Of a stretch of DNA of 64,000 bases, positions 32,236 through 59,517 are shown one piece after another. The DNA is from Sedimentisphaerales bacterium. Lineage in GTDB: Bacteria > Planctomycetota > Phycisphaerae > Sedimentisphaerales > Anaerobacaceae. How positions within the stretch are numbered: the stretch's first letter is position 1; each line of letters starts with the position of its first letter. Made by a program: the position numbers and the translations under genes. The notes beneath the pieces were generated by a model that worked only from the letters and a program-made list of their open reading frames with translations, did not search any database and was not told where the DNA came from. The stretch spans positions 5,472,001 through 5,536,000 of the forward strand of contig OY970194.1 of assembly GCA_963708075.1 (NCBI GenBank), read 5' to 3'.

Positions 32236-32582
32236 GGCAATCGTTGCGTTGCGCGAGGCAACCGGGCTGCGGAGAACGAGCCCAACTGATGAGACTATCT
32301 TGGTGCGCAGGTGAATTGAGCAGTTCTCATACAGATGCTTTGAGGGAACATCTCCTACCATAGCGCGATAGAATCCAGAGGTGCCTTAGGCGAAAGCCAA
32401 CGCGGATCCCTCCGCGAATGGGTGGTGCATGGGGACTTCTCAGAATGTGCGCATCCATTTCGTGCGCGTTCCGTATCGTTCCGTATGGGTGAAAGGTGGT
32501 GGTGTCTTATGAAATAACACAATTGTGCGCGTACAAAAGAATTTGGTCGGAGAAAGTGCAACTTTTTGTAGGGAGGCGAATC

Positions 32583-33512
32583 ATGAAGGTCGAAGTCTAC
32601 AAACTGATTCTCGGGTTGGTCTTAGTCAGCCTTATGGGATTGTTGTACAGCGACGATTGCTTCGGTTACGAGTATGAGTATACGTGGAGTTGGGATATCA
32701 GCAACCCTGAACCAGAAAGCTGGAGCGTCGCTCAGATGGGCTCTGGGTGGAAGTATTACGTAGCGCGGGGCCATTCGGGAGATGCGACGGCCGATCCAGC
32801 CCCAGAAGATCCCGAACAAGACCCACCTCCCGCACAAATTGATTTTTCGTGCCTCGCCAGTGCATATGCCAACGCGGACGTCTTGAATCTATCTTCCGGC
32901 AGCCTAAGCGCGAGCCATCAGTCGGGGTCGGGTGTCCGCGAGTGGTGGGATTGGACTGGTCCCGCCGGTAGCGAGCCCAACGTAAGATTCGTGATTAGCT
33001 ACGAGTACGGTGGAGACAGTGGTGCTTCAGCTGAGGTGCATGGGGAAGGCGTTTCCAGCGATCAACTAGGACCGGGGTGCGCAGGATGCTCGTACGCTGA
33101 GACAAACGCCGGTGGAGGCATGGCGGGCAATGATTATGAGTATCCCATCGTGGATTTCGCGGCACGTGGCCAAGGAGGGGGATATCTGGGCGGGACAGCA
33201 TTCGCGTGGGGTTCCGCGTACATTGACCCAGAGCTATCGGGCGATTGGACATCCATTGGGGACTCAGACCCCGGTGACTACATTTACGGTGGTGGGGCAA
33301 GCGTTGGCGTCGCTCGCCATGTCGGATCGTTTGGGACAACGTACAACATGCATCGTCTGAAGGTTTCACGAGGCGTTAGCTGCGACGCTCTTGCCGGCGC
33401 ATGGGCCTCATCGACGGGAGGCAGTGAAACATGGATTGCTGCTGGCCCAGCGGAGCCCGTCCACAGTGGTGCTGTGCTATATACAGACGTCGGCGTGGGG
33501 TGGGAGCCGTAA
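32583..33512 (+). CDS. Secreted Gly/Ser/Ala-rich hypothetical protein
   Basis: GGGAGG RBS, signal peptide, acidic aromatic-rich mature part; atypical codon usage. Confidence 0.7.
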   Translation: MKVEVYKLILGLVLVSLMGLLYSDDCFGYEYEYTWSWDISNPEPESWSVAQMGSGWKYYVARGHSGDATADPAPEDPEQDPPPAQIDFSCLASAYANADVLNLSSGSLSASHQSGSGVREWWDWTGPAGSEPNVRFVISYEYGGDSGASAEVHGEGVSSDQLGPGCAGCSYAETNAGGGMAGNDYEYPIVDFAARGQGGGYLGGTAFAWGSAYIDPELSGDWTSIGDSDPGDYIYGGGASVGVARHVGSFGTTYNMHRLKVSRGVSCDALAGAWASSTGGSETWIAAGPAEPVHSGAVLYTDVGVGWEP

Positions 33513-33724
33513 CTTCTGCCCAAGTAGCCCCTGATCTGATGGCTATACGGGAAAAGGTCTTCTTTGAGAGAGGTCTGATCGATGAGACATGTGTGCCGGG
33601 AACAAGCAGGACGATGATTGCTCGCGTTCCCGGCACATCCTCAATCCTCTCAGAGGATTCATCTGAATTGCGCTGTTGAGCGATTCGTTGAAACGCGGAT
33701 AGCTAACACATAGGAGGACTTAAG

Positions 33725-34045
33725 ATGCAGAGGTTTCAACCACAGTGGAAGCGATGTTTGTCAATTTGGCTTATTGCCGGTGTTCTCGCGAGCCTCAATC
33801 TGTTGATTTATTGCAGTACCAAGTCGAATGCTGGTGACACGACGAAGTATGTGCTCCAACAAGAGGGTGCCATATCCAGGCCTGCTGAGCAACAGGTTCC
33901 GCAGGCTAGGCCCCAGGCTGATGTTGGTGGAGTCTATGAAGCATCGCTCGAAATGAAGGAGAATGTGGATTTTCTTCTTACCCCAGCAATGGTGATGCAA
34001 GAAGTGGTGTCCTATGAGTCTGTGATTACTTATACCTCGGAGTAG
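33725..34045 (+). CDS. Hypothetical single-TM/exported protein
   Basis: AGGAGG RBS before the ATG; N-terminal hydrophobic segment. Confidence 0.6.
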   Translation: MQRFQPQWKRCLSIWLIAGVLASLNLLIYCSTKSNAGDTTKYVLQQEGAISRPAEQQVPQARPQADVGGVYEASLEMKENVDFLLTPAMVMQEVVSYESVITYTSE

Positions 34046-34054
34046 ACAAACGCT

Positions 34055-35827
34055 ATGAAAGTGGGTATGAATCATTCGTCAGTCACGCTCCCTGTCTCGG
34101 GTCCATTGATAGTCATGACCCTGGTTCTGAGTGGATTGACAAATGCCCAGGTGGTGGCCCCAACCGGCAAGGCGCTGGGTGTCCTTCGATTCGACGCGAT
34201 CCTCGAACTTAATGCTCCCATCATGGAGACCCATGTGGTTTTCTTTGCACGGTATTGGGTTGGTCGGGATCATTATAGCGTTGGAGTAGTCTGGGCGGAG
34301 CCACATGAGGGAAACATCAACTTCCCATGTTACCCTGTGACTCTGGCGATAGAAAGCGACCGGGAGAAGTTCAGTCTCTCGCATCAAGTGCACCAAGGTC
34401 CAAATGCGCCATTTCCAAAGCCTGTTGGAAGACGGGGCCTCTTTCAGCACAGATTCAACGCATACGACCTGAATGAAATCAGGTTTGCTGAGGCCGATGC
34501 CACAGCTTCCCGGCTTTACACCCCCGATTTGGATCTCTCTTCCCTCCCCCAGGACGGCTGGACAGAGCGTGAACTATCGAATCGTGGCGAGGGTGTCGGA
34601 GATATAGGAGATATCCGGAAAATCAAGATCTTGACGCGTAGTGGACGATTGGAGGAAATGACGCTACTGGACAAAGACAACGAGGTTCTTAAGACGGTTG
34701 ACTACGAGTGGCGCGAGACGGAGTCCGGGTGGGCTGTTCAGTCTGAGAGAATTGCGCTTCCCTCAAGGCTGCTCGCAGCGGGTGGCGAGGGGACTACGGT
34801 GACAGTCAAGATGCACGGCAAGGAGCGTGTGCTCAATGAATTCGCCATTCGCCATCACGCAGGCGGACGCAGTGCAACGGTCCAGTACGAATCCACGAAA
34901 TTGGGCAGCGAGACGATCACAGTACCCGTTCGCATCGTCGTCAAAAGGACTGCTGACGGCTTGCTGTTACGTTCTGTGCGCATGTTCAACTTTGCGCGCG
35001 TGAACCAAGGTGCGACTGAATGTGCCCAGGCGGCCCGGCGCTTTGCCGCCCTCAGCGGCGGCGAAGAGCGCTGTCGGCAGATGCTTCTTAAATACTGGTT
35101 GAAGGATCCGTCCGATGTCAATCAGGCGGATGCGGAGGTCCTTAAGTCACTGCATCTTGACTTCACGCGCCAAGCTACCGAGGAAATAGAACCCGCTATG
35201 GCTCTAAAGCGCATCAACAAGTGCTTTGAAGTGGATTGGATGCTTGGAGATGGGACCACCCTGAAGACCGACTATTCGCACTACCTATCCATCTTGAAAG
35301 AATCGGACTTGAGCAAGACCATGTTGTTCGGGGGGTGGAGTGTGATCGAAACTAGTGTAAGGTGGGGTTTCCTTCGCCCGGCGAACGAGATGCTGCGCAC
35401 CTGGGTCGATGCAGTAGTCCCGATGCAGAATGTGGATTCTCTCCTCGAATTTGCACATTCGCAGTGTGAGCGTTCCCGTCTGTGGAGCACTGTTGTCCTG
35501 GCAGAGAGGTTACGTCAGAGCCCCTGTAGCACGGAACAGCGCTTTGAGATAGAGGCTTTGCGCTGTGAAGCGATCATAAAGTTGGTGACATCAATCGAGC
35601 GTGCTGAGGCTGTCAAAAGCGATTTCGTTGTTATGCAAGCGGGGTGGGTGGCATCGCAAATTGACTTGGCGACGCTTCGCAAGATGGGACGTGAAAGCTT
35701 GGCCGAGAGTAAGCTTCTCTATGCCCGGCTCACTGAACCATCGAACAGGTGCAACGCTCTTAAAAGCCGGATCGAAATGACGGCTCAACGCGTTTTAGAG
35801 AAGAACGCCTCCCAGGAGGACCAGTAG
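34055..35827 (+). CDS. Exported hypothetical protein (beta-rich N-half, helical C-half)
   Basis: 590-aa ORF with signal-like N-terminus (TNA|Q); no family recognised. Confidence 0.72.
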   Translation: MKVGMNHSSVTLPVSGPLIVMTLVLSGLTNAQVVAPTGKALGVLRFDAILELNAPIMETHVVFFARYWVGRDHYSVGVVWAEPHEGNINFPCYPVTLAIESDREKFSLSHQVHQGPNAPFPKPVGRRGLFQHRFNAYDLNEIRFAEADATASRLYTPDLDLSSLPQDGWTERELSNRGEGVGDIGDIRKIKILTRSGRLEEMTLLDKDNEVLKTVDYEWRETESGWAVQSERIALPSRLLAAGGEGTTVTVKMHGKERVLNEFAIRHHAGGRSATVQYESTKLGSETITVPVRIVVKRTADGLLLRSVRMFNFARVNQGATECAQAARRFAALSGGEERCRQMLLKYWLKDPSDVNQADAEVLKSLHLDFTRQATEEIEPAMALKRINKCFEVDWMLGDGTTLKTDYSHYLSILKESDLSKTMLFGGWSVIETSVRWGFLRPANEMLRTWVDAVVPMQNVDSLLEFAHSQCERSRLWSTVVLAERLRQSPCSTEQRFEIEALRCEAIIKLVTSIERAEAVKSDFVVMQAGWVASQIDLATLRKMGRESLAESKLLYARLTEPSNRCNALKSRIEMTAQRVLEKNASQEDQ

Positions 35828-36338: not shown

Positions 36339-37199
36339 ATGGGTAAGCGTAAAGCGTTCACGCTGATCGAGTTGCTGGTTGTCATCGCGATCATCGCACT
36401 GCTGATGTCCATCCTCATGCCGGCCCTCGGCCGCGTGAGGAGGCAGGCCCGAGCAACAGCCTGCCTGGCGCAGCTCAAACAGTGGGGTTTGGCGTTTTCC
36501 CTGTATTGCCAGGACAACGACGGGTATTTCTTTAGCGGGGAGGTCCAGGGAGGCACCGCCAGCGTCGCCGCCACCATCGACGGAGTGACGAAATCGTGGA
36601 ATATAGGATCCGGCGGATTCTGGCGAATCACCATGGCGCCGTACTCCAAGGACCCGAAGATGTGGTGCTGCCCCCAGGCCCTCAAACCACTACCGGCCAA
36701 CAGTGCCACTATACCAGCAGGCGGCTGGACGTACGTGGCATGGAAGGTGGACGGCACCGTAGGCAGCTACGGCCTCAACGGCTGGGTCCTGAATTGCAAA
36801 GCCGCGAAGCAACCGGGCAACCGCACGACTGTATGGGGGCGGGCGGACAATGGTCGGCATTGGGGCGCCCCTCCGTCCCAGTACAGCAACGACGTGCCCG
36901 TATTTTCAGAGGGTTGGTGGGTGGACTTCTGGCCGCTTGACATTGACAACCCGCCGGCAGTCGAAGGGGGCCCGCAGGATATTGTCGGTCGCGACGAGAT
37001 GATCCGCGCTTGTGTCAATCGGCACGACGGCTTTGCGAACTCCGTATTCTGCGACTGGAGCGTAAGGAAGGTCGGCCTCAAGGAGCTGTGGACCCTCAAG
37101 TGGCACAAGACCTACAACACCCGCGGGCACTATACGAAGGGCGGCGGGATAATTGAGTCGGAATGGCCGCAGTGGATGAGGCACTTCAAGGAATACTGA
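36339..37199 (+). CDS. Prepilin-type N-terminal cleavage/methylation protein (DUF1559/H-X9-DG-like)
   Basis: [29 protein letters not shown]....C...LKQ; SYGLN; RHDGFANSVFCDWSV. Confidence 0.9.
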   Translation: MGKRKAFTLIELLVVIAIIALLMSILMPALGRVRRQARATACLAQLKQWGLAFSLYCQDNDGYFFSGEVQGGTASVAATIDGVTKSWNIGSGGFWRITMAPYSKDPKMWCCPQALKPLPANSATIPAGGWTYVAWKVDGTVGSYGLNGWVLNCKAAKQPGNRTTVWGRADNGRHWGAPPSQYSNDVPVFSEGWWVDFWPLDIDNPPAVEGGPQDIVGRDEMIRACVNRHDGFANSVFCDWSVRKVGLKELWTLKWHKTYNTRGHYTKGGGIIESEWPQWMRHFKEY

Positions 37200-37292
37200 C
37201 AAATGATTGCCGATCCGGGCCTTCATGCGATGGCTGGGCGGTGTTTTTGACGATAGTGGGTGCTGACGCAGAATCGTGTAAGGAGCCGTACT

Positions 37293-38153
37293 ATGGACAA
37301 GAGCAGAAAAGGCTTTACGTTGATCGAATTGCTGGTCGTAATCGCCATCATTGCGTTGTTGATGGCCATCCTGATGCCTGCGCTGCAGCGGGCCAAAGAG
37401 CAGGGCCAGCGAGCGGTCTGCATGGGTACTCTCAAGCAGTTGACGCTCTGCTGGATCATGTACTCGGACGCCAACGACGATAGGCTGGTGAACGGCGAGG
37501 CCGGATTCCAACCCAATACCACGACCCACGTGAAGGAAATCGCCTGGGTCGGCAGGTGCTGGAAGGAGCCGTACAATTCGCCGACCGGCAAGCAATGGGC
37601 TATCGAGGGCACCAACGGCCAGAAAGCCAATATCATGAACGGCTCCATGTGGAGCTACACACAGGAACTCGACATGTATGCCTGTCCAACCGGTATCCGT
37701 GGCGAGTTGCTCACATACAACCTCATGGACGGCGTCAACGGCATGCCAAGGAACGGGACGCACACCAACGGCGTGGCCACGATTGGACCCAACGGCAAGA
37801 AAATGTGGGTCAAGAAGCGCGCCGAAATCGACCAGCCGACCTATAGATTGGTTTTCATCGACGAAGGCGCATCGACACCCGACAGCTTTGCCGTGAACTG
37901 GAACAGCAGCGTCACCACGTGGTGGGATGACCCGCCGGTCCGCCATGGGGACGGCACCGTCGTGTCATTTGCCGACGGCCACGTCGAGCACAAGAAGTGG
38001 AAGGCCGCGCAGACAATCAGCTTTGGCAGGCAGTATGCCAACTACAAGAGCCCCAACGGGTTCACTGCGTCAACCCCGGAGGAATTGAGCGATATCGAGT
38101 TCATTCACAAGGGCTGCTGGGGTCAGTCACATTCCAGTTTCCCCAAGTATTGA
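37293..38153 (+). CDS. Prepilin-type protein with H-X9-DG motif
   Basis: [47 protein letters not shown]. Confidence 0.92.
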
Positions 38154-38475: not shown

Positions 38476-38704
38476 TTGTCCAAGCCTTACAATGGTTTGT
38501 CATTGCGGCTTGCGCTGTCCCGTCTTGCCGCCGCACAAGAGCTATCGGCCGCCCCGGCACGCGCGCTTCTGCGAAACCTGAGGCACGCTCGGCAATCCCC
38601 TCCAACAGCCAATTATTGGGCACAGAATTTTTTGTCGCCGGCGCGGCCGTCTGATAATCTGATACGATGGTTTTGGGAATCTTCGCGGCCTGGTGTCAGC
38701 ACTT

Positions 38705-38785
38705 GGGTGGCAGCGGCAAGCGCCGGCTTGCCGATGGTTTGCCCATCCGCCATCGGCAAAGCCTTCGACCTTGCCGCTGCCACCC
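38705..38785. repeat. Family C palindromic repeat
   Basis: GGGTGGCAGCGGCAAG...CTTGCCGCTGCCACCC. Confidence 0.87.
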
Positions 38786-38833
38786 GGAGACGTACTGTTT
38801 GCTGCAAGACTCACTCATAATCGTCTTGATGCC

Positions 38834-39973: not shown

Positions 39974-40416
39974 AAAGCCCGCGGCTTTGGCGAAGGCCTG
40001 CTTGAATGCGCCAACGACCATCGGCACGCTGCGCTTGCCGCTGCCACACGGAGAACACGCTGCTTTTCACGGGCCTTTGGAGATTCTCCTGCCGCGCTTT
40101 AAGGAAATGCCTTACGACTCATCGCACAGTGCCGCACCGTATGTATGCACAGGTACGGCTCGTGCTGAAGGAGTGGGTGCGATTTCGTTACGCCATGGGG
40201 GTGGATATGACGGAAGCCGGATCAAGGTCAGTTGCCGACACTCAATCGTTCGTGGAAACGGATGTTGATGTCTGAGTAGCTCCGCCGGCAAGAGTATTGT
40301 GCAGTGCCGGTCGCTGCGATGCAGTCAACAGGAATTGCCTCCGAGAGCATCGTCCGGCCGGCGGAGGGGCGCCTCCTGGGAGAGGCGCCCCATATTTGAA
40401 CTGGAATTGAAGAAAC

Positions 40417-42396
40417 ATGGTAACACAGAAGTTCACAGGCGAAACCGTCTCCCCCGGGGCGGCCAAAGGACGCCTGGTATTCTTTCAGGATGAGTATGAC
40501 TATGGCTTCTCTGGATTGGAAGAGGCGGCCACAGGCGATGTGCAGCGGCAAATCGCCCGGTTCGAGGACCATGTGGAGTTTCTTGTCAAGGAGTTGACGG
40601 AAGCGGTCTATGTTCTGGAGCACGAGTCGGCGATCGAAGAGGCGGAGATCCTCAGGACTCATATCTATCTGGTCAAGGACCCCAAGTTCCATCAGGACGT
40701 GCGCCAGGAGATCATCGAGCATGGGCGGGCGGCGGAAACCGCTATCGAGGCTACGCTGCGCAAGATGATCGTCGCCTTCGAGCGCTCGGAGAATGATCTG
40801 ATTTCCGAGCGGGCCGGCGATATCCGCGACATCCTCAGCCGGTTGAGCCGGCGGGTGAACCAGCAGAGCCGTCAGGCCTTCGAGGCGCTGCGGGGATCGG
40901 GAGCGATCGTTCTGGCGACAAGGGAGCTGTTGCCCTCGATCGTGCTGGAAGCACGGCATAGCAGCGTCGTGGGTTTCGTGGTCGAGCGGGGCAGCGGCTT
41001 ATCTCACGCCGCTATCCTGGCCAAGTCGCTCGGCTTTCCAATGATCCGCGTGGATGACCTGCGGGCGCTGGAGACGGCGGCGAACCAGGAGGTGCTCATC
41101 GATGCGACGAACGGCAGCATTGTCGTAGCGCCAGGCATACAGGAGGTCGTGCAGAGCCTGGACCCGGCCTCCTCACTGGGCAGGCTGGACCGCGCCACAC
41201 TGCCGGCTCGATTATGGGTGAACGTTGCCGATCCCGGCCAAGTGTCGTCGGGACTGCTCGAGAGGGTCGAGGGCGTCGGGCTCTATCGCACCGAGGTCCT
41301 GTTCATGGAGCAGACGGATGATTTCCCGAGCGAGCAGCAGCAGTACGAGGTGTATAAGTCGCTCTTTGAGACGTGCCGGCCGGACCATCCTGTGACCATT
41401 CGCACGGCCGACATCGGCGGCGACAAGACGCTGCCCTATTTCTCGTTCGGTTCCAGGGAAAATCCCTATCTGAGCATACGGGCCTTGCGGGTCTACCGCG
41501 AGCACCCGGAGATCTTCATCATCCAGATGCGGGCCATCCTGCGGGCGGCGGTCAATGCTTCGGGGCTGCGCGTGATGTACCCCATGGTCGCAAGCGTGGA
41601 GGACCTTGCCTTCCTCCGCAAGCTGATCACCGAAGTGATTCGCAGCCTGGAGGCCCGCGGCGAGACGTACCAGAGCAATTTCCAGCAGGGGATCATGATC
41701 GAGGTCCCCTCGGCGGTCTGGAACTGCAAAGAGCTTCTCGACGTGGTCGATTTTGCCAGCGTGGGCACGAACGATCTGCTCCAGTACTTCTTCGCAGTCA
41801 ATCGCGACGACATCGACGCCACCCAGGGCTACCGGGTGCAGAACCCCGTGGCGTTGCAGATGCTCAAGCACATCGTCGATTGTGCGGGCAAGGCGGGCAA
41901 GCCGTTGAGCATCTGCGGCGAGATCGCCTCGGACCCGCAATTGGTGCCCCTGCTGATCGGGCTCGGCTTTCACGACCTGAGCGTCGATGTTCACTTCGTT
42001 TCGCAGATCGAGCAGATCATATCGGGCCTGGACCTTGCCGCGTGCGAGCGGCTGGCGGACCAGTGCCTCAAGGCGCACAGCTCCCAGGAAGTGAGAAAGC
42101 TGTTGAGCGACTCCGTCGTCACGCGAAAGTCCACGGGCAATGGCGGCACACCCGGCCACGGCCGCGCGATCGATCCGGTGTGCGAGATCCTGATGGACAT
42201 CGCCGACAGCAGCCTGGCCATCACGCGCGAGGGTCGAACGCTGTATTTCTGCTCCGCACGATGCCGGGATGAGTACTTCCGCCGGGAGTTGTACAACGTT
42301 GAACGTGCGGTGAATCCGTCCGGCAAGCTGTACACTATCGCAGTCGCTCCGGAGGGCTGGGCGGCAGCCTGGCGAGGTGGGAAAAGTCTCCAATGA
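40417..42396 (+). CDS. PTS enzyme I-like PEP-protein phosphotransferase fused to a C-terminal YHS/TRASH domain
   Basis: ERAGDIRDI, phospho-His motif SHAAILAKSLG, VGLYRTE.LF, RTADIGGDK, ENPYL..RALR, MIEVPSA, SVGTNDL.QY, CGE; then DPVC-x22-YFCSARC-type YHS motif at about 42166-42285. Confidence 0.92.
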   Translation: MVTQKFTGETVSPGAAKGRLVFFQDEYDYGFSGLEEAATGDVQRQIARFEDHVEFLVKELTEAVYVLEHESAIEEAEILRTHIYLVKDPKFHQDVRQEIIEHGRAAETAIEATLRKMIVAFERSENDLISERAGDIRDILSRLSRRVNQQSRQAFEALRGSGAIVLATRELLPSIVLEARHSSVVGFVVERGSGLSHAAILAKSLGFPMIRVDDLRALETAANQEVLIDATNGSIVVAPGIQEVVQSLDPASSLGRLDRATLPARLWVNVADPGQVSSGLLERVEGVGLYRTEVLFMEQTDDFPSEQQQYEVYKSLFETCRPDHPVTIRTADIGGDKTLPYFSFGSRENPYLSIRALRVYREHPEIFIIQMRAILRAAVNASGLRVMYPMVASVEDLAFLRKLITEVIRSLEARGETYQSNFQQGIMIEVPSAVWNCKELLDVVDFASVGTNDLLQYFFAVNRDDIDATQGYRVQNPVALQMLKHIVDCAGKAGKPLSICGEIASDPQLVPLLIGLGFHDLSVDVHFVSQIEQIISGLDLAACERLADQCLKAHSSQEVRKLLSDSVVTRKSTGNGGTPGHGRAIDPVCEILMDIADSSLAITREGRTLYFCSARCRDEYFRRELYNVERAVNPSGKLYTIAVAPEGWAAAWRGGKSLQ

Positions 42397-44595
42397 AATC
42401 GCAGAGCGATTCAAACGATAACAAGGCGTCGCACGAGCACGTCACGGAGCACGTGGAACACGTCCGGCACGGCGAACGATACGAGCGCGTGCATCGCCAT
42501 CCGAAGCCCGAGCACCATGAAGCCGCCGGGCGCAAGAGCACATAGCGCACGAGAAGGACCAGTTGGCGGCCCATGCTCTGCACGGTCCTCACGCAGGCGG
42601 CCACGCGGCTCATCACTCCCACATGGTGGAGGACTTCCGCAGGCGATTCTGGATCTCCCTCGCGGCGACGGTGCCCATCGTGGTTCTCTCGCCGATGGTT
42701 CAGGAGATGCTTGGCTTTCGGCTCGCCTTTCCGGGCGACGTGTGGGTCCTGTTCGCCCTCTCCACGTTCGTCTTCTTCTACGGCGGCCGGCCCTTCCTGA
42801 AAGGGCTTGTCGATGAGCTGCGGGACCGGCTGCCGGGCATGATGACGCTGATCGGCCTGGCTATCACCGTCGCGTATGCGTACAGCAGCCTGGTCGTCTT
42901 CGGCCTGCGCGGGCAGCTCTTCTTCTGGGAGCTGGCCACGCTGATCGACATCATGTTGCTGGGCCACTGGATCGAGATGCGCTCCGTGATGGGCGCGTCG
43001 AGGGCGCTGGAGGATTTGGCCAGGTTGCTGCCGGCCGAGGCGCATCGGCTCGAGGCGGACGGCTCTGTTCGGGACGTCCCGCTGGGTCAACTGCAGCAAG
43101 GGGACAACGTGCTGGTCCGCCCCGGCGAGAGGATTCCCGCCGACGGCCGGATCGTCTATGGTGAAAGCGAAATTGACGAGTCCATGATTACCGGCGAGTC
43201 CCGGCCGGTCGCCAGGAAACAGGACGACCAGGTGATCGGCGGCTCCGTCAACGGCACCGGCTCGCTGACCATCGACGTGACCCGGACGGGTGAGGATTCC
43301 TACCTGTCGCAAGTGGTCAAGCTCGTCGAGCAGGCCTCCGCCGGCAAGTCTCGGCGCAGGGCTTGGCGGACAAGGCCGCGTTCGCGCTCACCGTGATCGC
43401 CCTGGCGGTCGGCACAATCACACTCGTCGTGTGGCTGGTTCTCGGCCAGCGGTTCGCCTTCGCCCTGGAGCGGATGGTCACCGTGATGGTCATCACGTGT
43501 CCGCACGCCCTCGGACTGGCGGTGCCGCTGGTGGTCGCGATGATCACCGCGGTGTCGGCCCGTAACGGCCTGCTGATCCGCAATAGAATCCAGTTCGAAA
43601 ACGCCCGTAACCTCGACACGGTCGTCTTCGACAAGACGGGAACGCTGACGAAAGGGCAGTTCGGCGTCAGCGACGTGGTCAGCTTCGGCGGCTGGAGCCG
43701 GGACGACCTGCTGCGAAAGGCCGCCTCCATCGAGCAGAACTCGGAACACTCCATCGCCCGGGGCATCGTGCGCCAGGCACAGGAGAAGGGCTTGCCGCTC
43801 GCGAGCGTCACCAACTTCGACTCCATCCCCGGACAAGGCGCGAAAGCGGCCGTGGATGGGGAGGAGATTTACATCGGCAATATGCGAATCCTCGCGAGCG
43901 CCCGCGCCGATGCAAGTCGGGTGCTGACGAAAGTCGATGAGATCGCCTCGCAGGGCAAGACGATCGTGCTCGTCGCCGCCGGCGGCAAGGTCCATGGGCT
44001 GATCGCCCTGGCGGACATCATCCGCGAGGAGTCCCGGCAGGCTGTCGCGATGCTCAGGCAGCAGAACCTGCAGGTCGCCATGATTACCGGCGACAACGAA
44101 GCCACCGCCCGCTATGTGGCCGGGGAACTCGGGCTCGATACGTACTTTGCCGAGGTCCTGCCCGACCGGAAATCGCAGAAGATCAAGGAGCTTCAGGAGC
44201 AGGGCAGGCGAGTGGCCATGGTCGGCGACGGCGTGAACGACGCCCCGGCGCTGGCGCAGGCCGACGTGGGCATCGCGATCGGGGCGGGAACGGACGTGGC
44301 CATCGAGACGGCCGACGTCATTCTCGTCGAGAACGATCCGCGGGACGTGGCCGACGTGATTTCGCTCTCGCGGCTGGCGAATCGCAAGATGATGCAGAAC
44401 CTCGTCTGGGCGACGGGCTACAACGTGATCGCCATTCCGCTGGCAGCCGGCGTGCTGTATGGGTACGGCATCATCCTGCCGCCTGCCGTCGGGGCCCTGG
44501 TCATGTCCCTGAGCACCGTCATCGTAGCCATCAACGCCCGGCTCATCCGCTACGGCAAACGCGGCAACAGGATGGCCGGGGGAGAATATCGATGA
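42393..44595 (+). CDS. Copper-translocating P1B-type ATPase (CopB-like, His-rich N-terminus); frameshifts near 42529 and 43353
   Basis: ATG 42393 overlaps the EI stop and reads MKSQSDSNDNKASHEHVTEHVEHVRH...; PGMMTLI, LLGHWIEM, TGES, CPH, DKTGT, SEH, TGDN, GDGVNDAP, YN, MSLST. Adding one G at each of two G-runs restores one frame. Confidence 0.92.
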
Positions 44596-44732
44596 AACCC
44601 GGCGGGCCGTTGAGCATCGAGCACAGGCTGATCGAGCGGATGGTCAGGCTGCTCGCCGACGAGCTGCGGGCGATGATCCACGAGAAATACCGGAGACTCG
44701 TGGAAGAGAACGAAAAGGCGCTGGCGCGTTGA
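44592..44732 (+). pseudogene. 46-aa remnant of a hemerythrin/HHE cation-binding protein (internal deletion)
   Basis: MKPGGPLSIEHRLIERMVRLLADELRAMIHEKYRRLVEENEKALAR: resembles the N-terminal GPL..EHRLIERM and C-terminal MIHEKY..VE of that family joined directly; ATGA-coupled to the ATPase. Confidence 0.55.
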
Positions 44733-44767
44733 GAATTTTCGGGTGCAGGGAAAACCGGGGACTGAAA

Positions 44768-45826
44768 ATGGATACCAGTCATATACTTTCTGCGAGCGAT
44801 CTGTACCGCTGGGTCGATGACCTCGTCGGCCGGTTCCGCGTGTTCGGGCCGGTCCTTCAGAAGAGAAACCAGACCACGTTCGAGCCGATCCACGACAGCG
44901 GACAACTGAACCTCGACTACTGCAGCACGATGCTCGGCCCGCGGTCATTCATCTACCCGTCCGTACAGAAGCTCCTCGAGATCGACCACAAGACAAACGC
45001 GTACAAGGTCGTCGATCCTGGGCCGGAGCAGACGCAACTGATTTTCGCCATCCACCCGTGCGATATGCACGCGATCACTGTGCTTGACAGGACTTTCCTC
45101 GGCTATTTTCAAGATTATTACTACTCCAAGCTGCGGGAGGAAACGTTTACAGTGGTGCTGAACTGTAATCGGGCCTGTGACAAGGGATTCTGTCCGTCGA
45201 TGGGCACGGGCCCGTTCCTGCGGATTCAGGAAGGGTACGATGTCGAGATGACCTCTCTGGGTGACGAGTTTCTGCTGGAGAGTGGCTCCGAGCGAGGCCG
45301 CGAGCTGATCGAGGCCGCCCCGGGCGTCAGGACCGCGAGTGAGGAACACCTGCAAAGGAAGGCGGCGATCGAGGAGCAGGCGACGGCCTCTTTCAAAAAG
45401 AGTATCGATACAGACGGTCTACCCGAGCTATTGATGCAAACTCTCGATCACCCGGTATACAAGGAGGTCGCCGACGAGCGCTGCCTCGGGTGCACGAATT
45501 GCACGATGGTCTGCCCGACGTGCTACTGCTACAACGTCGTGGATCGCTCGGACTTCGGCCCCGAGCCGATTGAGCGGAGGCGGCAGTGGGATTCGTGCCA
45601 GGACCTGTACTTCGCACAGGTCCACACGGGCAATTTCCGCGCGCCGCAACAGGCCCGCCTGCGGCAGTTTCTCACCCACAAGCTGGGCACATGGCTCGAG
45701 CAATACGGGTGCTTCGGTTGTATTGGCTGCGGCCGCTGCATGACCTGGTGTCCCACGGAGATCGACATCACGGAAATGGCCAAGGAGATTCAACGCGCCC
45801 CGGCGAGGGGATTGGAGCAGGAGTAG
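44768..45826 (+). CDS. Sulfhydrogenase-type beta subunit (4Fe-4S dicluster, HydB/AsrA-like)
   Basis: HPCD..AI..LD, C...CDKGFC, CLGCTNCTMVCPTCYC, WDSC, CIGCGRCMTWCP. Confidence 0.9.
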   Translation: MDTSHILSASDLYRWVDDLVGRFRVFGPVLQKRNQTTFEPIHDSGQLNLDYCSTMLGPRSFIYPSVQKLLEIDHKTNAYKVVDPGPEQTQLIFAIHPCDMHAITVLDRTFLGYFQDYYYSKLREETFTVVLNCNRACDKGFCPSMGTGPFLRIQEGYDVEMTSLGDEFLLESGSERGRELIEAAPGVRTASEEHLQRKAAIEEQATASFKKSIDTDGLPELLMQTLDHPVYKEVADERCLGCTNCTMVCPTCYCYNVVDRSDFGPEPIERRRQWDSCQDLYFAQVHTGNFRAPQQARLRQFLTHKLGTWLEQYGCFGCIGCGRCMTWCPTEIDITEMAKEIQRAPARGLEQE

Positions 45827-46690
45827 ATGACGATGAGCAGACTGGCTGTCAATCCGTTAGTCGCCGAGCTGGCTCGCGTCGAGGGAAAAGTCGAGGAAAC
45901 CGCCGACACGATTTCGCTGCGGTTTTCGCACATCAGTTCTGAGCCGCTGGCTTATAAGCCCGGCCAATTCAATATGATCGGCTTCCCGGGATTTGGCGAG
46001 GCGCCATTCTCGTTCAGCTCCCTGGATGCCGGCGATGGGACATTCGTTCACACGATCCGTGCGGCGGGAAATGTGGTCTCCGCCTTGCAGCGGCTTGAGC
46101 GGGGCGATCAGTTGGCATTCCGCGGCCCGTTCGGCACCGGCTGGCCACTCAAGGGCGCCCGGGGCAAAAACCTGCTCATCGTGGCCGGCGGGATCGGCAT
46201 GGCCCCCCTGCGCCCGGTCGTGTACTACGTGCTGAAGAACCGGGACAGCTTTCGCGATGTCTATCTGCTCTACGGGGCGAAGAAATCCGATGATCTGCTG
46301 TACGAGCGAGAGTTTGCCCGTTGGAGCGAGGAGATGACCGTGCTGCTGGCCGCCGAGCAGAGCCTGCCCTCGACCAGATCGAGGGTGCAGGGCGAGTTTA
46401 ATCTGCCGGTCCACGAGGGTCTTGTGACGAAGCTGTTCAAGTCTGTGCATGTACCGCTGCCCGAGACGATCACGTTCACGTGCGGGCCTCAGGTCATGAT
46501 CAAATTCGTCGCCGGCTTGCTGATCCTCGACGGGCAGCGGCCGGACGATATCTACCTCTCTCTCGAACGCAGAATGAAGTGCGGCATCGGGCATTGCGGC
46601 CATTGCCAGATCGGCGCCAGGTACGTCTGCCAGGACGGCCCGGTCTTCCCTCTGGCCGATATCACCCGGTTTCAGGACACTCTGCTTTAG
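45827..46690 (+). CDS. Sulfhydrogenase-type gamma subunit (FAD/NAD(P)-binding, 2Fe-2S)
   Basis: PGQFNM, GEAPFS, RGPFGTGW, AGGIGMAPLR, CGP.VM, LERRMKCGIGHCGHCQ, CQDGPV. Confidence 0.92.
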   Translation: MTMSRLAVNPLVAELARVEGKVEETADTISLRFSHISSEPLAYKPGQFNMIGFPGFGEAPFSFSSLDAGDGTFVHTIRAAGNVVSALQRLERGDQLAFRGPFGTGWPLKGARGKNLLIVAGGIGMAPLRPVVYYVLKNRDSFRDVYLLYGAKKSDDLLYEREFARWSEEMTVLLAAEQSLPSTRSRVQGEFNLPVHEGLVTKLFKSVHVPLPETITFTCGPQVMIKFVAGLLILDGQRPDDIYLSLERRMKCGIGHCGHCQIGARYVCQDGPVFPLADITRFQDTLL

Positions 46691-46699
46691 GAGCAGTCT

Positions 46700-46770
46700 G
46701 TAGGGTGGGTCCTTGACCCACGCGTTTGCCATCGAGGGTTCCTGCCGCGTGGGTTAAGAACCCACCCTAC
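46700..46770. repeat. GTAG-type REP doublet, family A
   Basis: GTAGGGTGGGTCCTTGACCCACGCG...CGCGTGGGTTAAGAACCCACCCTAC inside the hydrogenase operon. Confidence 0.9.
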
Positions 46771-46804
46771 ATGTTGGCGTGACATCTTTTCGGAAGATCG
46801 AGTT

Positions 46805-47593
46805 ATGAGCGACGGCAAACCCAGGATCGGGGTGTTCAAATACAGTTGCTGTGCGGGCTGTGAGTTCCAGTTGATCTTCTTTCAGAAGTACGTACTGGAG
46901 ACGTTCGAGACCGCCGAGATCATTTATTGCCCGATGCTGCAATCCGGCGGCGTGGAGGACGGTCCCTTCGACGTGGCGCTGATCGAAGGGACGGTCACGG
47001 AGGACTGGCAGGCGGAGCAGTTGAGGAAGGTCCGGAGCATCAGCAAGTGGGTGATCCCCATCGGCTCCTGCGCCGTCTGCGGCGGTGTGCCGGCGATCAA
47101 GAACACACAGGAGGAATACCTCGTTCAGAATCGAGTCTACGCGGACACGTCCAAGGTGCATTCGGTCCGGGCGCACTCCATCGACCAATATGTCCCCGTG
47201 GACGGCTATATCAAGGGCTGCCCGATGGGCGATCGCGACCTGACGGAATTCGTGACCTCGCTGCTGCTGGGCAAGCGGCCGGATTTCCTGTGCTCGGCCG
47301 TCTGCGTCGAATGCAAGCTCAAGGGCAACATCTGCGTGCTGGTCGCGTACGGCTGGCCCTGCATGGGGCCGGTGACCAACTCCGGCTGCGGCGCCCTGTG
47401 CCCCTCCCATGACCGAGCCTGCTACGGCTGTTGGGGGCCCATGGCCTCCGCCAATTCCAGGGCGCTGGCCAACCGGTTCTCGCGGCTGGGACTCACGCCT
47501 GAGGACGTGTACAGGAAGTTTACGGAATTCGGGGAACCCACCAGGGAATGGAAAGCCGGACAGGTGAGAAAGTGGGAAGTCGCACAAAAATAG
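46805..47593 (+). CDS. [NiFe]-hydrogenase small (delta) subunit, group 3b-like
   Basis: SCCAGCE, IEG, GSCA..GG, GCP, CVECK...C...CMGPVT..GC.A.CP....CYGCWG. Confidence 0.92.
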   Translation: MSDGKPRIGVFKYSCCAGCEFQLIFFQKYVLETFETAEIIYCPMLQSGGVEDGPFDVALIEGTVTEDWQAEQLRKVRSISKWVIPIGSCAVCGGVPAIKNTQEEYLVQNRVYADTSKVHSVRAHSIDQYVPVDGYIKGCPMGDRDLTEFVTSLLLGKRPDFLCSAVCVECKLKGNICVLVAYGWPCMGPVTNSGCGALCPSHDRACYGCWGPMASANSRALANRFSRLGLTPEDVYRKFTEFGEPTREWKAGQVRKWEVAQK

Positions 47594-48830
47594 AAGTGAA
47601 TTACATAGCGAGGGTGGAAGGCGAGGCGGCGCTGGCTGTGGAGCTCGATGGCGAGACGTTCCTGCAATTGAAGATTTTCGAGCCCCCGCGGTTTTTCGAG
47701 GGCTTTCTCGTCGGCCGCAAGTATGACGAGGTCGGGGACATCGTCTCGCGGATCTGCGGGATCTGCCCGGTGTCCCACATGATCACGGCGATCCAGGCCG
47801 TTGAGAGAGCCACGGGGATCGAGGTCAGCGAGCAGACACTGACGCTGCGGCGGCTCATGTGCCTCAGCCAGATCGTCGCCAGCCACCTGGTGCACTTGTA
47901 CGTGCTGGCAATGCCGGACTATTACGGCTTTCCCGGAATCGTCGGTATGCAGGAGCGATTCGGCGACCGGCTCCTGCGGCTGATGCGGATGAAGGACGTG
48001 GTGAACAAGCTGACCGGTATCATCGGCGGCCGGGCGCTGCACCCGGTGACCGCGTTGCCCGGCGGCTTTACGGCAATCCCGAAGCAACGGGATTTTGCCG
48101 ACGTTCTGGAGGAACTGAAAGCGATCCGGCAGGACGCCGCGCAGGTGGTCCACGACGTCGCCGATTTCAAGATGCCCGACTTCCACGCGGATTGTGAGCA
48201 CCTGGCCCTTAATGTCGAGCAGCGGTACGCGATCAACGGTGGCACGATCGTCTCCGACAAGGGGCTGGCCATCGAGATCGAGCAGTACGGCGAGTATTTC
48301 CATGAGACCGAAGTCCCGTATGCGTTCACCAAGAAATCCACGATTGGGGACCAGACCACGATCCGGGTCGGTGCCCTGGCAAGGATGAACAACAAATTCG
48401 ACAAACTCCAGGAAGGTACGAAATCGCTCGCGCGGGAGATCGGCTTCTCGCCGCCGGATGATAATCCGTTTCATAACAACCTGGCGCAGAGCCTTGAGGT
48501 GGTGGACGGGGTCGAGCAGTGCATCCAGATCCTTGAGAACCGCCTCATTCGAGGACGAGGAGATTTACGCAAGCCCGGAGGCGGGCGAGGGCGGCGCGAT
48601 GACCGAGGCGCCTTCGCGGCCTGCTGTACCACTGGTACAGGATCGACAGGCAGGGAGTCGTCGAGGAGGCCAACATCGTTACGCCCACCTCTCACAACTT
48701 CCGGGTCATCGAGAGGGACCTGAAGGAGTTGGTCACCCGGCACCGGGACCTGGAGTCATCCACGCTGCGGCTTCTGTGCGAACAGCTCGTGCGGGCCTAC
48801 GACCCGTGTTTCTCCTGTTCCGTGCATTGA
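47548..48830 (+). CDS. [NiFe]-hydrogenase large (alpha) subunit, group 3b-like; frameshifts near 48540 and 48613
   Basis: ARVEGE, PRFFE, L1 RICGICPVSH, GRALHP, VGALAR; after removing two bases EAPRGLLYHWY, IVTPT, L2 RAYDPCFSCSVH then TGA at 48828-48830. The start may be GTG 47572. Confidence 0.92.
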
Positions 48831-48867: not shown

Positions 48868-49275
48868 ATGATCGAGTATGGATTCGTCAAAGAGCTGGAT
48901 ATGGATTTTGAATCGGCCCTGGAAACGGTGAAAAACTCGCTGAGAGAGGAAGGCTTCAACATCCTGACGGCCATCGACGTCCGGGAGAAACTACAGGAGA
49001 AGCTCGGCGTCGATTTCCCGAAGTACGTGATCCTCGGCGCATGCGACGCCACCAGTGCGCACAAGGCGCTGATGGTGGAAGAGAATATTGGGTTGATGCT
49101 GCCCTGCAATGTGGTCGTGCACGAGAGCGACGGCAAGACCGTCGTGGCGGCGATCCGGCCGACCGTCGCCATGCAGATGATCGATAATCTCGATCTGCGG
49201 CGCATCGCCAAAGATGTCGAGCGCAGGCTCAAGCACGTCATCGACTCCCTCCAGCCGGTGGAGGCACTGACATAG
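48868..49275 (+). CDS. DUF302 domain protein
   Basis: L..EGF.IL..IDV...L..KLG..F..Y.ILGAC, IGLMLPCNVVV. Confidence 0.9.
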   Translation: MIEYGFVKELDMDFESALETVKNSLREEGFNILTAIDVREKLQEKLGVDFPKYVILGACDATSAHKALMVEENIGLMLPCNVVVHESDGKTVVAAIRPTVAMQMIDNLDLRRIAKDVERRLKHVIDSLQPVEALT

Positions 49276-49470
49276 GTCACAGACTGCCCGCCGGCAAATA
49301 ACGGCGGGTGGCAGCGGCAAGCAGAGAGAGGCGGAGCTTGCCGATGCCACCCAGCACAGTGCCCTAAAACTCGCACAGACGCGCGCGGACCGCCGGATTT
49401 TTTGTGCTGGACTTGTGACCACCCATCGGGTATCAGCGAAGTCAGCTTTGATAACTGGGGCGCCCCCCTG

Positions 49471-59304: not shown

Positions 59305-59517
59305 TTTCGTCCCTTAGGGGACTGGCTTTTATCCTTGGCCCCGGTTCCCCAGCGATAAATCGCTGGGCTATTCTCTATCGCCCTGCGGGCTTGGACTGTG
59401 CCCCAGTCCTCTTGCCTCGGCCCATTCGCCCCACAGGGGCGAGCGATAATAGCCCACCGTTTCAACGGTGGGTACCGATAGCCAATTATATTCCAAAGCC
59501 CCGCAGGGGCGAAAGAA
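59305..59517. repeat. Pair of multi-hairpin MITE/REP-like elements
   Basis: Hairpins GTCCC-ttag-GGGAC, CCCAGCGAT-aa-ATCGCTGGG, GCCCC-aca-GGGGC, CCCACCGTT-tc-AACGGTGGG, GCCCC-gca-GGGGC; two related units in opposite orientation. Confidence 0.65.

Follow-up and report, generated by a model that had tools for sequence, protein, structure and literature searches.

What an enzyme I (EI) of the phosphoenolpyruvate (PEP) phosphotransferase system (PTS) is doing beside a copper pump is the question raised by a 64,000-nucleotide stretch of a Sedimentisphaerales bacterium genome (contig OY970194.1, assembly GCA_963708075.1; the whole stretch is called the window here), in which one gene encodes an EI with a C-terminal YHS/TRASH metal-binding domain (EI-YHS) and the next a copper P1B-ATPase. 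An earlier note on this DNA had proposed a metal-sensing PTS branch, or an EI that phosphorylates or regulates the copper ATPase. The analysis established that the EI-YHS fusion is real, and gene neighbourhoods across phyla gave good support for a clade at home in resistance islands for copper and heavy metals. With slightly less than even confidence, we read the enzyme as a metal-stress-induced accessory EI that would feed the host's single HPr, with the YHS domain as a copper switch.

Judged by its sequence, the window protein is a genuine PTS enzyme I. Pfam placed a helical HPr-binding domain, a phospho-histidine domain and a PEP-binding barrel in one chain, and the score on TIGR01417 was 389 bits against a cut-off of 341.7, in agreement with the earlier claim of a full-length EI with its phospho-histidine codon at 41005, its PEP-barrel motifs and its cysteine. 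In the alignment with the solved Escherichia coli EI (2HWG), residues H197, R291, R329, R355, E429, N452, D453, R463 and C500 fell on the catalytic set, whose members beyond the histidine we take to be R296, R332, R358, E431, N454, D455, R465 and Cys502 in E. coli numbering. Among the best 120 homologues (117-120 sequences per position), the catalytic positions were invariant or almost so, and the catalytic cysteine was kept in 120/120. The ratio of nonsynonymous to synonymous substitution rates, calculated for eight pairs with some synonymous saturation, was 0.09-0.20 in the EI core and, across the 39 YHS codons, 0.10-0.34; on these alignments, the catalytic residues are intact and under purifying selection.

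Compared with E. coli PtsI, EI-YHS has the same three-domain architecture, the same fold and all catalytic residues, but it is ~30% identical, carries the C-terminal YHS domain, has a linker 13 residues shorter, and has replacements at the positions of E350, Y122 and T187. The linker span was 56-62 in 58 EI-YHS sequences, compared to 67-71 in 6 sequences of a YHS-less sister clade and 65-72 in 69 other EIs; gain of the YHS domain thus coincides with the loss of ~13 linker residues and with the new conserved residues W267 and C550. Glutamine at the position of E. coli E350, together with H357, R361 and H363, is common to EI-YHS and the sister clade. In the HPr-binding helices, D88, R132 and D135 are conserved and the positions of Y122 and F73 are altered. 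The protein is neither a PtsI equivalog (NF008382, 315.6 against a cut-off of 824) nor a PtsP equivalog (NF008283, 339 against 583), and Pfam found no GAF domain. Membership of the PEP synthase/PPDK families failed as well: Pfam found the EI domains alone and no ATP-grasp domain, and scores lay far under the cut-offs. Metal-dependent dimerization through loss of R400 was considered and rejected, given that R400 is unconserved in other EIs too; literature support for it was not found.

The C-terminal domain that the earlier note had read from the motif DPVC...YFCSARC was recovered with the ligand set Asp/Cys-x2-Cys ... Cys-x3-Cys, here D586-C589-C612-C616. Taken alone, the window domain reached 21.5 bits on the Pfam YHS profile PF04945, under the gathering cut-off of 30.3, and homologous domains exceeded it (for example P0073, 39.4 bits). 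When the domain was aligned with stand-alone and CopA-fused YHS domains, PF04945 matched 18/18 at E values up to 0.01 and the four ligands were invariant in 18/18. Modeled separately, it was predicted to form a small treble clef (predicted local distance difference test, pLDDT, 84.8), and this part of the full-length model had a pLDDT of 55-75 and was uninformative on contacts. The best structural matches of the domain model were YacG, large ribosomal subunit chains (presumably eL24) and an FCS finger, with Z scores of 4.0-4.8 that are low because the domain is small. The D-C-C-C set was intact in 106/120 nearest homologues. Short-read contigs from two studies bridged the EI/YHS junction without a gap (X1, 41560-42249, which may derive from the source sample itself, and X3, 42039-42317), and together with the conservation among homologues they led us to reject an artefactual fusion.

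A functional precedent for such a domain is the adenylyl cyclase of Mycobacterium phlei, an enzyme with a C-terminal Asp-Cys-Cys-Cys YHS domain whose activity Cu at 1-10 micromolar specifically turns on (PMC4626032). Both proteins would be dimeric signalling enzymes with the same Asp and three Cys ligands at the C-terminus; they differ in catalytic domain and output, and the tether is longer in EI-YHS (~20 residues). Copper binding by the YHS cysteines, and any copper effect on the EI, are suggested by this analogy.

When 1.84 billion cluster representatives were searched with a profile, ~28 clusters (50% identity) scored above 495 bits, and ordinary EIs followed from 466 bits down. In quick trees with a midpoint root, EI-YHS formed one clade with a Shimodaira-Hasegawa-like approximate likelihood ratio test support of 100, the sister clade another (100), and the two were joined at 99, separate from both the PtsI and the long EI of the source genome. 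The earlier note had asked for a placement in a PtsI/PtsP tree, and in these quick trees EI-YHS branches apart from both. EI-YHS resembles PtsP/EI-Ntr in being an EI paralogue that carries an additional, putatively sensory domain and is not tied to sugar uptake; unlike there, the sensor would be a C-terminal YHS domain instead of an N-terminal GAF domain. Record titles assigned the clade to Planctomycetota, Spirochaetota, Rhodothermota, Myxococcota, Bacillota, Calditrichota and Deferribacterota, although titles of metagenome-assembled genomes can lack precision. Members are rare and patchily distributed, occurring in 6/23 genomes of the same genus and 0/17 other close relatives, in 1/400 genomes of the phylum and 1/300 of the class (with only 3-4 candidates scored per genome), and in 5/92, 6/131, 1/131, 3/21, 1/14 and 1/9 genomes of other groups, each count including the centre genome. 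Plasmid or isolate members were also looked for, and the best plasmid match, only 33% identical, belonged to ordinary EIs.

For the gene context, 39 clade loci were compared with 130 other EI loci of similar length, using island markers picked from the clade's own loci, which are related and not independent. The counts for clade loci and for the others were 18/39 and 6/130 for a metal efflux, oxidase or regulator gene, 14/39 and 1/130 for a P1B-ATPase, and 21/39 and 0/130 for accessory island genes (PII-like, ICMT-like, DUF5676, DUF2933, DUF302, SHOCT, RseC); ptsH, conversely, was present in 0/39 clade loci and 61/130 others. Seven loci were found after the markers had been fixed, and 5/7 carried them: four had a P1B-ATPase (one with a mer cluster, one with an ArsR gene), and the other three held island genes, general-stress genes and, on a 2.8-kb contig, nothing else. 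The P1B-ATPases are of three types (CPH, CPC and APC). No neighbour was shared by even half of the loci (PII-like 8/39, ICMT-like 13/39), and a PII-like gene lay within 260 nt upstream of the EI in 6 loci; PII-like genes of this type cluster with metal pumps (PMC7726332). Among the sister-clade loci, 7/8 had island markers, and in one (L207) the EI has a stand-alone YHS gene immediately downstream, possibly the pre-fusion state.

With operators counted (see below), metal evidence was present in 27/39 loci. The other twelve comprise one seven-locus branch, a further three loci that belong to a different small branch, and a pair of short contigs. In the seven-locus branch (L028, L029, L030, L032, L035, L038, L109), EI-YHS stands tail to tail with a PRC-barrel gene, near trehalose, VKOR, AI-2E and SPW genes and no copper genes. 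Extending the flanks of 12 regions, mostly from loci free of metal genes, brought in no more than a second copper ATPase for L049 and, for L189, an ATPase that is not of the P1B type. Further recurrent genes were observed: a thioredoxin-reductase-like flavoprotein with an N-terminal YHS domain directly or closely downstream of EI-YHS (L039:11893-12936, L033:2653-3696, L034:12334-13440), and, in the metal islands, a large membrane protein that contains a spermidine-synthase-like domain (L042:11973-14312, L048:5329-7710, L204:5114-7522, L203:1-1123) and a trio of MMPL, LolA-like and porin-like genes (L040, L042, L204, L205).

Regulation was approached with a CsoR-box matrix trained on six sites, none of them directly upstream of an EI. 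A box within 400 nt upstream of the EI start was found in 4/38 clade loci (scores 16.4-22.7) against 1/124 controls (11.8). Across whole loci, boxes scoring at least 13 were common in both sets (9/39 and 25/130), whereas those scoring at least 17 occurred in 7/39 clade loci, one of them intragenic (L038), and in 0/130 others. In L037, L042 and L203 the genes behind the box begin with EI-YHS, and in L040, L045 and L047 the box heads an operon containing it; a 115-120 amino acid protein with no Pfam match, HMA-like by eye and lacking an N-terminal CxxC, recurs between box and EI-YHS (L040:2777-3127, L047:4682-5026, L045:7925-8290). In the two loci scanned, the boxes overlap TTGACA-N17/18-TATATT promoters with 11 of 12 sigma-70 matches. 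CsoR-family genes were present in 8/22 genomes, all with Cys-His-Cys, which we take to be the CsoR fingerprint. Predicted operator and C-H-C CsoR occur together for L037, L042, L049, L203, L045 and L047; L040 has the operator, and no csoR was found in its genome. The boxes match the Staphylococcus aureus CsoR site ATACCtataGGGGGTAC (PMC10233261, PMC5947656). In one branch, then, the EI-YHS promoter is overlapped by a predicted CsoR-type operator, and the setting resembles known regulons of CsoR and copper islands (copA/copB, cus, mco, PII-NG) in operator sequence, C-H-C repressor and neighbour genes. A loose look-alike at 40189 in the window was rejected as chance (one of 26 in the genome), and no sigma-70 promoter match was found upstream of the window gene. 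A riboswitch scan of the window and 22/39 clade loci gave a single switch near an EI, a fluoride riboswitch (51.6 bits against 34) heading an operon of L189 in which EI-YHS follows enolase. From the riboswitch (L189:15635-15696, minus strand) to L189:704, that locus encodes two dynamin-like GTPases, HEAT and FGE-like proteins, enolase, EI-YHS, a Na/H exchanger, DUF190 and an MFS transporter; it belongs to the small three-locus metal-negative branch, and its last YHS ligand is His.

The clade EI is accessory, since it stands beside a housekeeping EI. A second EI and one full-length HPr were found in every carrier checked (n=29: 24/24, 4/4 and the source genome), which rejects an HPr-independent enzyme of HPr-less genomes, and no dedicated second HPr was found in them. 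The source genome, whose HPr lies at C1:6440295, has a separate ptsH-ptsI pair, answering a question raised earlier, and a separate long EI with an N-terminal extension. Six EIIA matches were found in it, several of which, as labelled by eye, are joined to membrane or helix-turn-helix segments, and no match to the EIIC families PF02378, PF03611 and PF03609 at 92.8% completeness. On this gene content, its PTS is probably non-transporting, lacking a sugar permease.

The features of the window operon are collected in Table 1. No HPr match lies within the locus, as had been observed before. The stop codon of EI-YHS and the ATG of the ATPase do share an ATGA at 42393-42396, and the ATPase has the CPH, YN-x4-P, MxxST and DKTGT signatures and the His-rich N-terminus, which we assume to define P1B-3 (CopB). 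The ATPase is not one open frame in this assembly. The overlap, and with it the proposed translational coupling, is lineage-specific: it arises from a 30-residue EI-YHS tail present only in the closest homologues, and L108, which carries the operon's gene order intact, has a 22-nt gap instead.

Table 1. Coordinates of EI-YHS, its sites and the downstream genes in the window
Feature	Position	Strand	Evidence
EI-YHS fusion protein of 659 aa, in the metal-island EI clade	40417..42396	+	Pfam PF05524, PF00391, PF02896; TIGR01417; trees
His197, phospho-accepting histidine	41005..41007	+	Aligned to E. coli EI His189; His in 117/117 homologues covering the position
Shortened linker between N- and C-terminal halves, D229-G286, ~13 residues below other EIs	41101..41274	+	Span comparison
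YHS/TRASH domain, ligands D586, C589, C612, C616	42172..42264	+	Alignments, Pfam match, model
CopB-type P1B-ATPase (CPH, His-rich N-terminus), three frames in the assembly	42393..44595	+	Breaks near 42530 and 43354; intact 742-aa L108 orthologue
Hemerythrin-domain gene remnant	44592..44732	+	Residues 29-159 of the L108 orthologue missing
NiFe sulfhydrogenase-like cluster, four genes (beta, gamma, delta, alpha)	44729..48830	+	Identical order in L108
DUF302 gene	48868..49275	+	Also in two other clade loci with copper genes

Relative to the L108 copB, which scores above the TIGR01511 cut-off, one base is absent at each of the two copB breaks, and hydA (alpha) is split by two extra bases near 48539 and 48614. 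The one-base breaks in copB are probably assembly errors because genes are also split elsewhere in the assembly (5/36 compared with relatives, 3 of the 5 outside the EI-YHS operon) and because relatives' contigs over 42971-43654 and 48554-48705 have one gap each, that is, over two of the breaks. The hydrogenase-like cluster forms one run with copB and hemerythrin in the window and in L108 (L108:15005-19065); a further such cluster lies elsewhere in the source genome (C1:3631782-3635520), as does a second copper cluster with a YHS-fused CopA, DUF302 and Met-rich small proteins (C1:4127254-4132688). No island boundary was found around the operon, where the repeats are short dispersed elements; palindromic or dispersed intergenic repeats lie at 46699-46771, 38704-38790, 40022-40054 and 49305-49357, and contigs join some of them together. 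The window also contains two inverted Acido-Lenti-1 RNA matches (59348-59472), two tandem genes with an N-terminal prepilin-type FTLIELLVV motif, seen by eye, upstream of queA (36339-38153), and a lower-GC stretch (~54%) with three open reading frames (32496-35827).

In the mechanism that we favour, metal stress would induce EI-YHS, which would autophosphorylate from PEP on His197 and pass the phosphate to the host's only HPr, and this would alter the phosphorylation of stand-alone and fused EIIA proteins in a PTS that, in the source genome, appears permease-free. Copper on the YHS cysteines would switch the enzyme on as a second, post-translational copper input, and the adjacent CopB would be a fellow island gene and not a substrate. 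The route from PEP through EI-YHS and the shared HPr to EIIA is the simplest because HPr occurs in all carriers checked and none of the neighbours is common enough to be a dedicated acceptor; the copper switch is the leading role for the YHS domain because the M. phlei cyclase, with the same C-terminal domain, is copper-activated. Its more specific form, in which EI-YHS is a CsoR-induced, metal-switched second entry into a purely regulatory PTS, so that HPr, EIIA-fused transporters and DNA-binding proteins report copper stress besides carbon status, is a tentative possibility. Several findings weigh against the favoured mechanism. The YHS domain is absent from the whole sister clade, and 14/120 homologues, 7 of them among the 19 closest, have degenerate or shortened tails in place of an intact domain. 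Twelve of 39 loci have no metal evidence, and the seven-locus branch among them neighbours the window's lineage and keeps the YHS domain. The CsoR boxes are confined to one sub-branch, no convincing operator was found in the window, and no CsoR (PF02583) match in the 92.8% complete source genome. The L189 member sits in a fluoride-riboswitch operon, the HPr-contact surface is partly altered, with Tyr122 replaced, and the choice of markers from related loci counts here too. Because a sister clade with no YHS domain is found in these islands too, the association with metals is older than the fusion; this and the 14/120 homologues indicate that the enzyme's tie to metals does not come from the YHS domain. 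The metal link of the PTS branch first proposed is well supported, by gene context across phyla, CsoR-type operators in one branch and the published YHS copper switch.

An alternative is a back-up isozyme, a reading we consider rather unlikely: Cu, Hg, Cd or fluoride would poison the housekeeping EI or lower PEP, a stress-induced extra EI would keep HPr and EIIA phosphorylated by dosage or tolerance, and the YHS domain would be a local metal sponge or structural add-on. The YHS-less sister clade in the same islands, the repeated losses of the domain within the EI-YHS family, its fusion to a thioredoxin-reductase-like enzyme in these islands, and the L189 member behind enolase under a fluoride riboswitch all suit it, as do the inhibition of enolase by fluoride, hence of PEP supply to the PTS (PMC5508371), and of GAPDH by copper (PMC6350627). 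However, the catalytic cysteine is kept in 120/120 homologues, so there is no obvious desensitization; the YHS ligands, under purifying selection, persist in deep branches, and YHS gain is tied to the linker deletion and to the conserved W267 and C550. That EI-YHS instead phosphorylates a target other than HPr, either an island protein such as the PII-like one often directly upstream or a small molecule, is improbable. ptsH never adjoins the clade EI, the helical domain and R355 loop carry clade-specific changes (E350 to Q; H357, R361, H363; Y122 lost), and the PII-like gene is within 260 nt in the six loci, but there is no universal neighbour, all genomes checked encode HPr, the acidic and arginine residues at the core of the HPr contact are retained, and the protein has no ATP-grasp or substrate domain. 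Direct phosphorylation or regulation of the copper ATPase deserves the least credence. The ATGA overlap, and a P1B-ATPase within ~450 nt of the EI core in the window, L108, L056, L049 and L203, speak for it; yet no P1B-ATPase occurs in 25/39 loci as sequenced, the ones that do occur fall into three types, the overlap is not a conserved feature, and P-type ATPases phosphorylate their own aspartate from ATP. A dedicated partnership found no backing. Finally, the EI could hitch-hike on mobile islands with no role in metal stress, the window operon being in decay, which is highly unlikely. The patchy distribution even within the genus, the split copB and hydA with the deleted hemerythrin, and the twelve metal-negative loci accord with a passenger, whereas EI-YHS comes first behind a CsoR-box promoter in three loci, neighbours reshuffle while the metal theme persists, selection is purifying, genes are also split outside the operon, and relatives' contigs show a gap over two of the breaks.

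In searches of mainly open literature, no work on EI-YHS was found, the YHS-copper papers were not on EI by title or abstract, and no PTS enzyme I was found as a member of a CsoR regulon or copper island. Automatic annotation already labels some fragments "EI component/YHS domain-containing protein". New here are the architecture, the clade and the regulatory context as read from sequence, with a function that is proposed from them. The described inputs of the PTS phosphorelay are carbon and nitrogen status; metal stress would join them if the clade belongs to metal islands and CsoR regulons in several phyla. If the mechanism is true, the YHS domains would gain a second biochemical test case and the permease-free PTS of many uncultured sediment bacteria a role, in that metal stress may feed into the central PEP phosphorelay.

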